Shown here piece after piece: positions 25,341-30,498 of a stretch of 64,000 nt of DNA. The position numbers were made by a program, and so were the translations under genes. Under the pieces are notes generated by a model. That model had not been told where the DNA came from. It was given only the letters and a program-made list of their open reading frames with translations, and searched no databases. Positions within the stretch are counted from its first letter, which is position 1. Each line of letters opens with the position of its first letter. The DNA is taken from IMG/VR virus record IMGVR_UViG_3300012347_000482, positions 53,051 to 117,050 of that record, one strand, 5' to 3'. The DNA comes from a virus (Duplodnaviria; Heunggongvirae; Uroviricota; Caudoviricetes).

Positions 25341-26444
25341 ATGAAAATAAGAGAAATAATTACAGAAAGCATATCAGTAACAGATTGGATTGAAAAAATA
25401 TACTCACAGTTTCCAGTATGGCCACTAAATCAAAACCAACGTGTTATTGATTTAGGCGGCGAAGGTGAGAATCAACAATTTGTATGGTTTGAATTAAAGC
25501 CGTCAACAAGTAAAAGAAATGCTGTTGAGATTGACTGGATTGGGGCCCATCCTCAACGAAGCGGCGCTGGCACTAAAGGTTTAAAAATATTACAAGGTTT
25601 AGCAAATGAAGCAGGCATTTCATTAACTTTATTTCCTTGGGAGCACGGGCCAGTCAGTCAACCTAAGCTAATTAAGTTTTATAAAAAATCAGGGTTTGTG
25701 CCTCAAATGAAAGGCGCCAAACACATGAAGTGGGATCCGCAGCCGATTGAAGAAGGATGGAAAGAATGGGTAGCAGGAGGTGCACTAGCTGCCGGTGCTC
25801 TTGCCGGTGCTTACAATCATTATAACCAACCACCAGAATTTAAACAACCAGCTCGTCCTATAACTATGTCACCGGTTCTTAAATACAAGTTAATATCTAA
25901 TAATCCATCTAACGAAGATGAACTTCGAGATGCTGCCGACAAAGCTAACATAACTGGATATGAATTAGCACAACTTATGGCACAATGTGCACACGAAACT
26001 AAAAACTTTGTATCAACCACTGAAGACGGTACAGATAAAAACTTTACCAAATGGTATGAAGATAATGCAGATCTTGGAAATACTGAAAAAGGTGACGGAA
26101 TTAAGTATAAAGGAAGAGGATTTATACATCTTACTGGCCGATATAATTATACTGCAGCGAGCAAAGCACTAGGACTTGATCTTGTCAATAATCCAGAGTT
26201 AGCAGCTGAACCAAAAAATGCAGCTAAAATTGCAGTATGGTATTGGAAATTTAGGGTAGATAACAGAGTTACTGATTTTACAAATACTACTAAAGTTACT
26301 CGAGCTGTTAACGGTAAAATTAATGGGCTAGACGAGAGGATTAGATATTTTAATCTGTACATTAAAGCACTTGGATTACCATCAGTCGAAAATGCAGCAG
26401 GTAATGTTCTACCTCAAGCGAAACCTGAAGTTAAAAATAAATAA
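25341..26444 (+). CDS. GNAT-like N-domain + hydrophobic segment + GH19 (chitinase/lysozyme-fold) domain; capsid-targeting-like N-terminus MKIREIITE
   Basis: GH19 signatures QCAHETKNF, KYKGRGFIHLTGRYNY and AVWYWKF; N-domain IDWIGAHPQRSGAGTKGLKILQGLANEAG...KLIKFYKKSGF is GNAT-like; WVAGGALAAGALAGAY hydrophobic linker. ATG 25341 preferred over the TTG 25329 of the ORF track. Confidence 0.7.
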   Translation: MKIREIITESISVTDWIEKIYSQFPVWPLNQNQRVIDLGGEGENQQFVWFELKPSTSKRNAVEIDWIGAHPQRSGAGTKGLKILQGLANEAGISLTLFPWEHGPVSQPKLIKFYKKSGFVPQMKGAKHMKWDPQPIEEGWKEWVAGGALAAGALAGAYNHYNQPPEFKQPARPITMSPVLKYKLISNNPSNEDELRDAADKANITGYELAQLMAQCAHETKNFVSTTEDGTDKNFTKWYEDNADLGNTEKGDGIKYKGRGFIHLTGRYNYTAASKALGLDLVNNPELAAEPKNAAKIAVWYWKFRVDNRVTDFTNTTKVTRAVNGKINGLDERIRYFNLYIKALGLPSVENAAGNVLPQAKPEVKNK

Positions 26445-26473
26445 ATATTAACTATACTGTATATGGAGATTAC

Positions 26474-27013
26474 ATGACAATTGCTAGTGGAGATTTGTTG
26501 ATTGCACCACCGACGCTTACTGGCACTGCATACGCCGGAGCAGTAATTATGCTAGCCAGTACAAACCCAACAATGGGGTTTGTACTTAATCGCCCAACTG
26601 GAACACCGTTGAGTCGAATTGCACCTAAGCTTGAACAATATATGGACACTGATATTTATTGGGGAGGCCCAGTAAATGTTGCAACTATATGGATGTTGCA
26701 TACAAATGATTGGTCGATGAGGAATTCTGTCGAAATATCAGCCGATATGTCAGTTACGTCAAACATGGCAATGTTCGATAGATTAGCAAACGGTGATTGG
26801 CCTGAATACTGGAGAGTCTTCGCCGGATCTTCTGTATGGACCGAAGGTCAGTTAGAAAGTGAAATAATTCAGCTCACAGATAAACCGAGATCGCAAGGAT
26901 GGCTCACTGCGCATACACCCGACCCTCACTCTATACTAGGAGTAGAACACAGGGATCTTTGGCAAATAGGGTGTGAATTAGCCAAAGAACAAGCAGTATC
27001 ACAATGGATATAA
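26474..27013 (+). CDS. YqgE/AlgH (DUF179/UPF0301) family protein
   Basis: GDLLIAPPTLTGTAYAGAVIMLASTNPTMGFVLNRP matches the family signature G.LLIA.P.l.d..F..sVill.eH...GamGlvlNrP. Confidence 0.6.
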   Translation: MTIASGDLLIAPPTLTGTAYAGAVIMLASTNPTMGFVLNRPTGTPLSRIAPKLEQYMDTDIYWGGPVNVATIWMLHTNDWSMRNSVEISADMSVTSNMAMFDRLANGDWPEYWRVFAGSSVWTEGQLESEIIQLTDKPRSQGWLTAHTPDPHSILGVEHRDLWQIGCELAKEQAVSQWI

Positions 27014-27014
27014 T

Positions 27015-28154: not shown

Positions 28155-28171
28155 CATTTTATAAATTATCT

Positions 28172-29128
28172 ATGTCAATCAGCAAACTTATAATAGAAGC
28201 AATTAGCTTAACACAGCACGCTCCGCAATTTGAAGAGAAACTAAATAAAATATTTGATAAGCATCTAGGCGATCTACAGACTTTACACGATGCTGCTTAT
28301 AATATTTCAAAAATGACAGATCCGGCAATTGCAGACCTTGCTAACGAATATGTAGCATTAATTGAATACGATCTAGTGTTTACTCTGAAACCCGAATTAT
28401 TATCAATGGGGCAGTCAGTTGGAAAACAATCATTAACCGCGGTTGACATAATTCCTATGCCGGATAGAGTAGGAGGGTCAGCCGACACTACTTCTATTTC
28501 TATAAATCACAAATTTATTAAACATATTATAGATTTTTTTATTATTTTGATTAAAAAACATGTACCTAACAGCATGTTTTCAGAGCCAGCAACAAAAGAA
28601 AATGTTAACAAATTTTTTATGTTAATAAAAGATCATGTTTTGCCTAACTTACTTGGCGGAGTACTAGTTACTTCTGTGGCACATCATATAGCAAATGCAT
28701 TTCTTCATGAGCTTGTGCATATAGAACAAAATGCTAGACAAACAGCGATCGGTCGTACAAATATGGCATATAAAAGTTACGCAGGAAGTAAAAAGCCTAA
28801 CCCGGATGACGATGATAACGAAATTACTCAGTTGAATAAATCTGGAAACGTTAACTCTCCGAGATTTGATAAACTATATTTTGCTAGTCCACAAGAAATG
28901 GCAGCATTTACACATAATATTGTAAATAAAATTGTCAACCACTACGAAATTTATGCAAATAAAGATAATGTACCAATGAATACAGCTGCTAGTGAAATAC
29001 CTGGCCAAGTGAAATATTATCTTAATCCGACTAACAAGACAGAACAAAATATATTCAATCGATATGTAAAACTTGCTTATCAAGAACTAAGCAGGTACTA
29101 TGCAAGTCTTACACCTAATAAATCTTAA
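28172..29128 (+). CDS. putative HExxH metallopeptidase-like protein (paralog 2)
   Basis: AFLHELVHIEQN (HExxH); shares MSISKLIIEAISLT and ASPQEMAAFTHNIV with the 27015 gene. Confidence 0.55.
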   Translation: MSISKLIIEAISLTQHAPQFEEKLNKIFDKHLGDLQTLHDAAYNISKMTDPAIADLANEYVALIEYDLVFTLKPELLSMGQSVGKQSLTAVDIIPMPDRVGGSADTTSISINHKFIKHIIDFFIILIKKHVPNSMFSEPATKENVNKFFMLIKDHVLPNLLGGVLVTSVAHHIANAFLHELVHIEQNARQTAIGRTNMAYKSYAGSKKPNPDDDDNEITQLNKSGNVNSPRFDKLYFASPQEMAAFTHNIVNKIVNHYEIYANKDNVPMNTAASEIPGQVKYYLNPTNKTEQNIFNRYVKLAYQELSRYYASLTPNKS

Positions 29129-30498
29129 ATTTCAGATCTGCTAGTTCGTGCTGCAGCTGACTGTTGCAGAGCAGATCTTAATGTTGACGTATTTAAATTT
29201 CCAGTAGCTACATAATTTGCTAATACTTGAATTACATCAGTATCTGTATTTTCCGAACTAGACAATAGCTTGTATAGTTTTTTTGCATATTCGTTTTTAT
29301 ATTTTTCCGGATCAACAGCTGCATCAAGTGCTACAACAAATCGGCGTAGCGTAGTTTCTATCTTTCCGTTTTCAACTTCGGCTACCCAATTGCCCCCAGG
29401 ACTTCGGAACTCAACCCATTTAGTTTTAACATTAACACTAGTATATTTGTTAGTAATTCCCGCATGTACTAACTTGCTCGCAGCGGCATTTAATTCTGAT
29501 TTCATTTTATGAAGCAGCATTCCGGCAGATGCAGGGCTAGTTTCGATATTGTTTTTAATAACATCTAATGCACTAGCTGCATACTTATTCGCCATTCTAT
29601 CAAATGCATTTAGTACATAGTGATCTCCGACTAGTAGTACCAACTTAATATAATCTAAATTTTCTATGCTATAATTAGGAACCGATACATTAATATGAAG
29701 TCCGGTAGTGTCGTTAGTATATGCATTAACGGTCTTCATCCATTTAGCTACTTTATATAAATCGGAAATCATTTCGTCTACTGCTTGTGGCGGAGAAATA
29801 AATTCAAGTCCCGGCTCACCATCATTACCGACTATACTAGAGTCTGGCTCCATAATATACGATACAACAGTACGTTTTGCACCATGATAAGATTGACTTA
29901 CCCTAACAGGTTTTCCAACTGCTGCAGAAAATGAGTATTGAATCTTGTCATCAAAATCTTGTGATCCTATGCCAGTTATCGGACGTAACCCATTTGAAAC
30001 AAGTACTGATCTCATATTAGTGTAACCGTGATAGTCAAGCCATGACTGTTCAAGCTTGTTCTTAGTAGCCACCCTTTGCATCCATGCATTACGAATTTCA
30101 TTATAAATGTCAGAGCGATTATCAATAGCGTCGTTTACTGCATTCTCTAACTCGTCACCGGTTAATCGCTCAACAGATGAGAAATAGTTAGTTAGTACTT
30201 GCATATCCGAATCGTACCACTTATTAGTTAGTAAGTCATCGAGGTAATCAGTATAACTATCTTCTAATATACTACGAAGGCGTGCAACATTTACAACATT
30301 TGCATACGGTGTAAATGCCCTACATATATGATCAATTGATTTAGGAACTTCTGATAAATTCATTGGGGTGAATGGAATAATTAATTCGAATTCCATTCCT
30401 GCCAAAGCATTAATTGATGAGGACAACTTAGTCAGCCCGCTGGGCGACATGTTGACTTCGTTGAGTGGGTTGGGATGATTAAGGTCGTATAGTCTCAT
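29125..30498 (-). CDS. putative amidoligase (Amidoligase_2 / glutamine-synthetase-like COOH-NH2 ligase)
   Basis: Three hallmark motifs as recalled for the family: GEPGLEFISPP, TGLHINVSVP (GxHVHV-like) and KWVEFRSPGG (EFR..). Confidence 0.55.
   Translation of the reverse strand: MRLYDLNHPNPLNEVNMSPSGLTKLSSSINALAGMEFELIIPFTPMNLSEVPKSIDHICRAFTPYANVVNVARLRSILEDSYTDYLDDLLTNKWYDSDMQVLTNYFSSVERLTGDELENAVNDAIDNRSDIYNEIRNAWMQRVATKNKLEQSWLDYHGYTNMRSVLVSNGLRPITGIGSQDFDDKIQYSFSAAVGKPVRVSQSYHGAKRTVVSYIMEPDSSIVGNDGEPGLEFISPPQAVDEMISDLYKVAKWMKTVNAYTNDTTGLHINVSVPNYSIENLDYIKLVLLVGDHYVLNAFDRMANKYAASALDVIKNNIETSPASAGMLLHKMKSELNAAASKLVHAGITNKYTSVNVKTKWVEFRSPGGNWVAEVENGKIETTLRRFVVALDAAVDPEKYKNEYAKKLYKLLSSSENTDTDVIQVLANYVATGNLNTSTLRSALQQSAAARTSRSEI

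Follow-up and report, generated by a model that had tools for sequence, protein, structure and literature searches.

Five adjacent genes at positions 25341-30498 of a 64-kb stretch of DNA from an uncultured jumbo phage (IMG/VR record IMGVR_UViG_3300012347_000482, genome of at least 261 kb) encode a mini-GNAT–GH19 fusion, a YqgE/AlgH (DUF179) protein, two HExxH paralogs and an amidoligase. The whole stretch is termed the window in the following, and all coordinates refer to it. An earlier reading of the sequence (the original prediction) had taken these genes for a single system modifying proteins or cell-wall peptides. A stronger common denominator than a shared pathway is, however, a nine-residue N-terminal leader that resembles the capsid targeting sequence of bacteriophage T4 and is present on four of the five proteins. 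With a confidence only slightly above even, we propose that it marks a late-expressed set of effector enzymes that would be packaged into the capsid and injected, acting independently of each other and not in one pathway.

Results

A nine-residue leader on otherwise unrelated proteins

The leader follows the consensus M-[RK]-x-x-E-[FIL]-[IL]-x-E and heads 18 genes of the window, which belong to eight families that are unrelated once the leader is removed (the first 14 residues were taken off all 18 proteins before comparison). These families are an array of ten paralogs, the GNAT–GH19 protein, the HExxH pair, the amidoligase and four small proteins. A strict version of the pattern, M[RK]x{1-3}[ED][FILVM][ILVFM]x[ED], was found in 14 open reading frames (ORFs) with an ATG start, always at the beginning of a long ORF and at most nine codons from the upstream stop. 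The reversed sequence, which served as a control, gave a single match and none with an ORF of at least 60 amino acids (aa). Addition of a paralog with a GTG start, the two HExxH genes (MSISKLIIE) and the amidoligase gene (MRLYDL...LNE) brings the number from 14 to 18. Across these 18 genes the leader peptide is conserved although its codons vary. The leader is a genuine, position-specific feature. It is present on neither AlgH nor the DNA ligase, ClpP, RNA ligase, ribonucleotide reductase, exonuclease and tail-fibre-like protein of the window.

Hundreds of metagenomic homologs in the amidoligase, HExxH and mini-GNAT families bear the leader as well. Most of the 120 listed amidoligase homologs start with MRALDFIILE, MKYREILEQ, MRATEFILEN or alike, followed by L-x-E-[IV]-x-M-[SN]-P. 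HExxH homologs start with M[RK]IxE[IL][IL]xE-AISLT, E9 being invariant in an alignment of 50 sequences, and 12 of 18 mini-GNAT homologs start with MRA[NT]EFI.E, for example MRATEFITE. Position counts along the leader give M1, [RK]2, [ED]5, [FIL]6, [IL]7 and E9. In distant loci, unrelated neighbouring genes carry it too. A role as phage-nucleus import signal was rejected because nothing points to that lineage, and a role as secretion signal because the leader is charged and not hydrophobic.

Leader genes are preceded by a conserved box, which upstream of the GNAT–GH19 gene reads CATAAATATCGTAGCTA (25277..25293, plus strand). The 17-mer CATAAATAYYRTAKMTA (CATAAATATCGTATCTA) occurs in nine copies against 1.1 expected, all of them upstream of leader genes. 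The late promoter of T4 is TATAAATA, and the CATAAATA box of the window resembles it and may likewise function as a late promoter. The five genes are the last ones of a block of about 22 kb that is probably expressed late. At 25304-25323 and at about 19470-19500 a GC-rich hairpin with a T-run is situated between the CATAAATA/TATAAATA box and the start codon, such that promoter-like box, terminator-like hairpin and gene follow each other in these two cases.

Relationship to the T4 capsid targeting sequence

In T4, a capsid targeting sequence of ten residues suffices to load foreign proteins into heads (PMC9026906, PMC8442874, PMC3012670), and the tag is removed by the prohead protease gp21, which cuts after L/I-x-E (PMC9026906, PMC8442874). 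The T4 internal proteins (IPs) IPII and IPIII start with MKTYQEFIAE and IPI with MKTFKEF...ITE. Leaders of the window such as MRAREFIIE, MKIREIITE and MRVHEFITE have the E-F-I-x-E core and the terminal glutamate in common with them. In both phages the tags sit on otherwise unrelated proteins, and the genes are singly preceded by a TATAAATA-like box. A second site in the amidoligase family, L-x-E before [IV]-x-M-[SN]-P, has its counterpart in the longer propeptide of IPI. Differences exist nevertheless: the tag of the window has one residue less, it heads at least 18 genes in 64 kb compared with the three IPs of T4, and instead of small basic IPs it is borne by large enzymes of 300-740 aa (amidoligase, zincin-like, GNAT–GH19). 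Furthermore, the phage studied here is uncultured and without a match at the DNA level among 50,697 phage records. The internal-protein cargo of T-even phages is a variable anti-defence set. In giant phages of the phiKZ/SPN3US type, many head proteins are cut after glutamate by a gp21-related protease (PMC9026906). The ejection proteins of these phages, however, have long propeptides without a shared N-terminal tag, and nothing ties the window to that lineage.

Among cultured phages, relatives of the amidoligase were found only in the jumbo phages Atu_ph07 and RsoM2USA, both of which possess T4-like head genes including one for a gp21-like protease (gp204 in Atu_ph07). The Atu_ph07 homolog AUZ94978.1 (500 aa, 57.9 kDa) is encoded two genes from the T4-like portal and corresponds to gp196 by gene order and mass. 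This gp196 has been found in purified virions with 14 peptides and a coverage of 30%.

The amidoligase

An ORF map of the window places all five genes at the coordinates given here. The amidoligase gene (29125-30498, minus strand, 457 aa) is convergent to the other four. The motifs by which the family had been recognized in the original prediction are all present, i.e. EFISPP at aa 232-237, TGLHINV at aa 265-271 and EFRSPGG at aa 363-369. The protein also carries an MEFEL motif, and its N-terminus reads MRLYDL...LNE/VNMSP. Its own match to Amidoligase_2 (PF12224) is borderline (22.4 bits compared with a cut-off of 22, E value 1.3e-4). Among 5.8 billion proteins at least 766 homologs were identified, mostly 600-800 aa in length and for the most part labelled PF12224; six long homologs with about 40% identity score between 26 and 47 bits on this model (maximum 46.8). 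Residues E36, E38, E217, D219, E232, H268, R301, E363 and R365, which would belong to the metal/ATP site, are invariant in the 31-35 aligned amidoligases, and a fold search returned the glutamine-synthetase catalytic fold. Given the labels and scores of the homologs and the invariant residues, the assignment to the carboxylate-amine ligases is established for both fold and catalytic core. Comparison of the amidoligase profile with PDB sequences yielded one spurious coiled-coil match and nothing else.

The invariant E-x-E, E..E, G-L-H and E-x-R positions are shared with Amidoligase_2 in general, whereas a leader at the N-terminus and a helical insertion of some 140 residues set a jumbo-phage-specific subfamily apart. 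Unlike most of its homologs, the window protein lacks a C-terminal region of about 300 aa. In the structural models the leader is disordered or detached; in that of the amidoligase, residues 1-13 have a predicted local distance difference test score (pLDDT) below 50. A single-sequence scan of IMG/VR revealed no close relatives of the amidoligase, whereas the alignment-based scan did find loci. Related loci are numbered with the prefix L in the following. In two loci with distant relatives, L008 and L009, the amidoligase is followed by SNase or Endonuclease_NS nucleases, which start with MKKLL...A, a signal peptide in place of the leader, and are secreted or periplasmic enzymes in the company of leader-tagged genes.

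At 29125-29128 the stop codons of the amidoligase gene (minus strand) and of the convergent second HExxH gene (plus strand) overlap by 4 nucleotides (nt). No terminator separates the two genes, and the same overlap is found in L004 and L005.

The mini-GNAT–GH19 protein

The original prediction of a GNAT-like protein joined to GH19 holds for the GH19 part by a match to PF00182 and, less firmly, for the GNAT-like part by sub-threshold similarity at the family level. The gene (25341-26444, plus strand) encodes 367 aa from the ATG at 25341. A motif scan located the leader MKIREIITE at 25341..25367; it is followed on the same strand by an AcrVA5-like mini-GNAT domain at 25464..25739 (aa 42-133, motif A QRSGAGTKG, FYKKSGF), by a sequence module at 25749..25814, in which IEE/GWKEW precedes the Gly/Ala-rich, weakly hydrophobic segment VAGGALAAGALAGAY, and by the GH19 domain at 25920..26378. 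The latter is documented by PF00182 (51 bits compared with 25.5, E value 2e-13), by a PHROG endolysin family (E value 1.8e-41) and by PDB entries, the best solved relatives being phage GH19 endolysins (E value 1e-24). The alignment to endolysin 9ms7 spans AHE(S/T) and a second acidic position, which correspond to CAHET (aa 216-220) and TTED (aa 226-229).

The mini-GNAT domain of the window itself has no match in Pfam. When considered together with its 18 homologs, which are mostly stand-alone proteins of 140-150 aa, 17 of the 19 sequences match Acetyltransf_1 weakly (best E value 2e-4). Among solved structures the profile of the family matched 6IUF best (E value 1.3e-5 over about 63 residues), followed by GCN5 with an E value of 0.02. 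According to PMC11021501, entry 6IUF represents AcrVA5, an acetyltransferase with anti-CRISPR function. Like the window domain it is a mini-GNAT of about 90 residues with a Q/R-x-x-G-x-G motif, but the window domain is fused to GH19 and the similarity spans only those approximately 63 residues.

The module preceding GH19, [LIV]-x-E plus G-W-K-[DE]-W plus a Gly/Ala-rich stretch, recurs ahead of GH19 in L012, L026, L040 and L110 and is also found in the window ORF at 2820-3290, and a variant of it, [LV]EE-G[VI]RD followed by an Ala/Gly-rich stretch, is present in the giant fusion proteins of L042 and L052. Judging from its sequence, IEE/GWKEW may represent an internal [LI]-x-E processing site followed by a membrane-active segment.

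The HExxH pair

Two tandem HExxH paralogs had been proposed, and they are indeed related (30% identity, E value 7e-34), with their first 14 residues, MSISKLIIEAISLT, being identical. HExxH-1 (27015-28154, plus strand, 379 aa) and HExxH-2 (28172-29128, plus strand, 318 aa) share the leader MSISKLIIE and carry HELTH (27549-27563) and HELVH (28706-28720), respectively, both at aa 179-183, as well as ASPQE at 27726-27740 and 28883-28897. Three polyproline blocks form a tail of HExxH-1 (28056-28145), as had been described; the first of them, however, is LPPPLP and only the second and the third are MPPPLP. Just two of 152 members of the HExxH family possess such a tail.

The full profile search revealed 295 representative clusters of this family, compared with just five in a word-indexed search. 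H179, E180, H183, Q186 and E242 are invariant in the alignment of 50 sequences, the downstream glutamate occupying the position of the third ligand, and HExxHxxQ...SPQE is a gluzincin-type pattern. The assignment to peptidase families fared less well, as neither protein reaches the threshold in Pfam, PHROGs or NCBIfam: HExxH-1 shows a sub-threshold match to BSP (E value 0.008, 16.4 bits compared with 23.8) and HExxH-2 none in these three collections. Comparison of the HExxH model with viral predicted structures gave nothing at an E value of 0.001 or better, and a tblastn search with HExxH-1 found no match in cultured phage records. On the basis of the motif pattern it is plausible that the HExxH proteins are zincins or metallopeptidases. 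Of the enzyme assignments made originally, amidoligase fold, GH19, DUF179 and GNAT-like domain thus stand, while that of the HExxH proteins is only plausible.

A paralog of 737 aa from the array upstream (17215-19428) contains four GYF_2 domains and a PPPMPGQPPPL stretch of its own. Since GYF domains bind proline-rich peptides, this paralog and the proline tail of HExxH-1, both on leader-bearing proteins, may dock together.

The AlgH protein

The YqgE/AlgH gene (26474-27013, plus strand, 179 aa) matches DUF179 (PF02622) with 91.5 bits compared with a cut-off of 27 (E value 7e-26, positions 1-150 of 157). As NCBIfam models for YqgE/AlgH are matched with E values of 2e-17 yet far below the equivalog cut-offs, the protein is a divergent family member. 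Such proteins are rare in phages, as had been surmised: only four weak matches were obtained among 50,697 phage records, none of them in a characterised phage, and a scan of IMG/VR gave no close relatives. The stop codon lies 1 nt ahead of the start codon of HExxH-1, and AlgH is probably an unpackaged intracellular accessory protein that is translationally coupled to HExxH-1. YqgE from E. coli promotes dormancy and reduces protein expression in a Lon-dependent manner (PMC11634777), and plant DUF179 proteins bind the plastid protein ClpC1 (PMC8889267).

Gene neighbourhoods and fusion proteins

Gene neighbourhoods were counted within ±10 kb of 80 IMG/VR loci (of 447 found), the amidoligases of which are 35-41% identical. 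A GH19 gene is present in 14 of them and a mini-GNAT gene in 12, whereas HExxH and AlgH genes occur in none. GH19 often starts 2 nt downstream of the amidoligase, and in L053 the downstream gene encodes a mini-GNAT–GH19 fusion. Conversely, 19 HExxH loci contained amidoligase and GH19 genes in two cases each and AlgH in none; HExxH genes themselves often occur there as tandem paralogs. Close relatives of the window (97%, 71% and 67% identity) retain the convergent HExxH-2/amidoligase pair and flanking genes, and the gene content beside the amidoligase otherwise varies widely. From these counts it follows that the five-gene cluster is lineage-specific and that only the link between amidoligase and GH19 recurs; the idea of a conserved neighbourhood is only partly supported, by amidoligase and GH19 and, in close relatives, by HExxH-2 and amidoligase, and fails for HExxH and AlgH in the distant loci.

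In five loci the amidoligase is part of giant fusion proteins of 1440-2082 aa (L046:8546-13309, L052:7409-11938, L073:8600-14848, L042:1355-5677 and L072:852-5357), in all of which an AHELTHxxQH motif lies ahead of the amidoligase. The protein from L046 (1587 aa) has the order NTase-HExxHxxQH-amidoligase-GH19 with GH19 at the C-terminus, that from L052 combines Peptidase_M48/M78 with Amidoligase_2 and that from L073 NTP_transf_2 with Amidoligase_2 and ParB_N. Amidoligase is accordingly fused to an HExxHxxQH zincin in five relatives and to GH19 in one. Membership of the fusion zincin in the HExxH family of the window was considered and rejected, because the alignment is confined to the 25 columns of the active-site helix (hhalign probability 62%).

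Injected polyvalent proteins of phages and conjugative elements have been described as multi-domain effectors by Iyer et al. (2017; PMC5512222), the authors proposing that zincins process the polyprotein and that lysozymes breach the cell wall during entry; the word amidoligase does not occur in that paper. The giant relatives resemble them in combining a pol-beta-type nucleotidyltransferase, a zincin-like HExxH domain, a lysozyme-type domain and ParB_N, and those of L042, L046, L052, L072 and L073 all contain multiple effector domains. In contrast, the proteins of the window lack this hallmark, and their domains, one or two per protein, are encoded by separate genes with a leader each. The pattern of fusions fits co-delivered polyvalent effectors, for which a shared pathway would be unnecessary.

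Further genes of the window

Directly upstream of the five-gene cluster, the ten leader-bearing paralogs (8854..25271, plus strand) start with MRAREFI[IVF]E and variants thereof and contain a ..NWCT.. core. They measure 385-737 aa and display a cysteine-containing core (..SC..GK.T.WCTA..) and C-terminal repeats of about 30 aa (..WPEGE.AI..); some have an HTH_35 domain or the four GYF_2 domains. The sole cultured relative of this family resides in Salicola phage SCTP-2, where it starts with MKVKHITQYLFES and adjoins a T4-type RNA ligase. The small leader proteins are encoded at 2820..3290 (plus strand; MRIYEIINE, then LEE/GWKE and a hydrophobic segment), 7724..7966 (plus strand; 80 aa, MKIFEVIQE), 31050..31322 (minus strand; 90 aa, MRVHEFITE, with GCATAAATA directly upstream) and 45613..46302 (plus strand; 229 aa, MRIEEIVTE).

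A gene resembling HNH/NUMOD3 homing endonucleases (8069-8764) immediately precedes the array, and a second HNH gene lies at 36159-36674. Genes for tRNA-Arg(TCT) and tRNA-Met are located at 6413-6636 on the minus strand. Upstream of the amidoligase, a very hydrophobic protein of 102 aa (30732-31040) and a Band_7/SPFH lipoprotein (31568-32425; PHROG 'lipoprotein', E value 8e-31), both of them membrane proteins, are encoded on the minus strand. A full-length ClpP homolog is encoded at 36824-37444 (E value 1.6e-64), and in L001, L002, L004, L005 and L007 a clpP gene lies at most 10 kb upstream of the amidoligase. Together with AlgH/DUF179, for which the literature indicates ties to Clp and Lon, the presence of ClpP hints at a manipulation of host proteolysis. 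Compared with L001, a contig with 97% identity, the window contains an extra stretch of about 5 kb (about 37800-42900) encoding a 106-aa protein and two large DUF285 proteins with BspA-like repeats (754 and 767 aa), apparently an insertion/deletion polymorphism between near-identical phages. A near-identity DNA search with positions 25000-31000 against the 50,697 phage records gave no match.

Discussion

If the T4 principle applies, each protein would attach to the prohead core by its propeptide M-[RK]-x-x-E-[FIL]-[IL]-x-E, from which the prohead protease would free it through a cut behind the conserved glutamate. The mature enzyme would stay inside the capsid and, at ejection, enter the next host along with the DNA. 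During entry, the GH19 wall hydrolase would attack peptidoglycan. In keeping with such a role, a GH19 domain fused behind an ATP-dependent ligase can get to peptidoglycan only through delivery from outside or upon release by lysis. It is joined to the AcrVA5-like acetyltransferase, and cleavage at IEE/GWKEW would part the two and expose a membrane-active N-terminus. The zincin-like HExxH proteins could be processing or effector peptidases, and the presumably ATP-dependent amidoligase would join an amine to a carboxylate on a host or phage target. Capsid targeting, cleavage, ejection, late transcription and every substrate are inferred here.

Several observations weigh against this proposal. 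The Atu_ph07 virions had been purified with polyethylene glycol only and a topoisomerase is also in the mass-spectrometry list, so contamination is a possible explanation for the finding of gp196. Searches by phmmer with the portal, protease and capsid proteins from Atu_ph07 revealed no gene for a prohead protease, scaffold, portal or capsid protein in the window or in 99 related loci, which were covered within ±10 kb of the matched proteins. In IMG/VR, the Atu_ph07 protease retrieved 44 loci, none of which shares a contig with the listed amidoligase loci. A link between the leader and a protease of the T4 type is therefore hypothetical for this clade. Furthermore, the leader of the window amidoligase is degenerate (MRLYDLNHP...LNE), and the strict pattern is met by just 14 of the 120 listed amidoligase homologs and a looser one by 69. 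The plain 8-mer YATAAATA is not enriched in the window (25 copies compared with 19 expected), and the longer box could have been copied together with the paralogs. Finally, short proteins consisting of leader, GWKDW, a Gly/Ala-rich segment and GH19 also look like signal-anchor-release endolysins. The failure to find a protease gene in the sequence covered, the degenerate leader, the possible contaminants and the endolysin look-alikes are the reason why we place the packaging model only a little above even odds.

The endolysin resemblance leads to a different explanation, in which the GH19 protein would be a membrane-tethered signal-anchor-release endolysin, the other proteins accessory and the conserved N-terminus a translation or expression cassette. 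In fact, the relatives with this arrangement are proteins of about 228-281 aa, the order leader, anchor and enzyme is that of known signal-anchor-release endolysins, and the nearest PHROGs and PDB families are endolysins. In the window protein, however, the hydrophobic segment is 140 residues away from the N-terminus, behind the GNAT domain, and stays below the Kyte-Doolittle threshold of 1.3, while L046 carries GH19 at the C-terminus of a 1587-aa protein without any hydrophobic segment. Nor would an expression cassette account for a leader that is kept at the amino-acid level with varied codons and an invariant glutamate in unrelated families, and we consider this explanation quite unlikely. 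A related idea dispenses with a functional link altogether and regards box, ribosome-binding site and leader codons as a recombination cassette by which unrelated morons are swapped. It would explain that the upstream 17-mer and the first 27 nt are near-identical among the paralogs and that the gene content beside the amidoligase differs so widely among relatives. Distant phages, however, keep the peptide motif with E9 invariant while their DNA differs, and packaging is compatible with a cassette, the two coinciding in T-even phages; a cassette as the sole explanation appears rather improbable.

The single system envisaged originally, in which amidoligase, HExxH proteins, GNAT–GH19 and AlgH would attach amino acids or peptides to a protein or to peptidoglycan stem peptides, or trim them there, was not borne out as stated. 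It would agree with the GH19 genes found immediately behind the amidoligase gene in several lineages (14 of 80 loci) and the one fusion of the two, with the HExxHxxQH zincin fused to the amidoligase in five giants and with the retention of the HExxH-2/amidoligase pair at 67-97% identity. It is at odds with the lack of HExxH and AlgH from all 80 distant amidoligase neighbourhoods and with an amidoligase in only two of 19 HExxH loci. The zincin of the fusions matches the HExxH proteins over 25 columns only, such fusions have been described as bundles of independent effectors (PMC5512222), and the amidoligase is encoded on the opposite strand. Moreover, an ATP-dependent ligase could not act on periplasmic peptidoglycan. 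A common pathway is thus improbable in our view. It is very unlikely that the leader serves a different machine, for example as a degron or adaptor site for a ClpP-type phage protease that would set timing or turnover. The phage does encode ClpP, a clpP gene is found near the amidoligase in relatives, DUF179 interacts with ClpC1 (PMC8889267) and dormancy caused by YqgE depends on Lon (PMC11634777); yet the genes of the window include no recognisable unfoldase partner, the T4 tag with its cleavage rule is a far better match for the EFIxE core and terminal glutamate than any known degron, and one amidoligase homolog was found in virions.

Returning to the packaging of independent effectors, its building blocks are of known kinds, namely the T4 capsid targeting sequence, polyvalent proteins, Amidoligase_2, GH19, GNAT and DUF179. 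What appears to be new is the attachment of a T4-like tag to so many large enzymes in a clade of uncultured jumbo phages, the amidoligase as a virion-associated and widely distributed member of the cargo, and the HExxHxxQH family as such. In the literature searched, such a tagged enzyme cargo of jumbo phages was not described. It is a speculative and on the whole unlikely extension that this clade loads dozens of enzymes for an enzymatic counter-defence, in which the injected amidoligase, among the most widespread members of the set, would tag a host protein with an amino acid or peptide and would arrive alongside the AcrVA5-like acetyltransferase; this would be a new class of counter-defence acting from the onset of infection. 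The target of covalent tagging could then be a host defence or transcription factor.

Should the leader be a capsid-targeting propeptide, it would offer a short, portable tag of practical use for loading foreign proteins into large capsids, and the injected proteins of jumbo phages could be listed from sequence, here at least 18 proteins from eight families. The amidoligase, HExxHxxQH and AcrVA5-like mini-GNAT families with their hundreds of metagenomic members would become candidate effectors of the first minute of infection. The principle of the T4 internal proteins, which are small anti-restriction proteins, would extend to large enzymes and to distant jumbo phages, and it would be linked to that of the polyvalent proteins, because domains that some phages encode as fusions carry individual tags in others.

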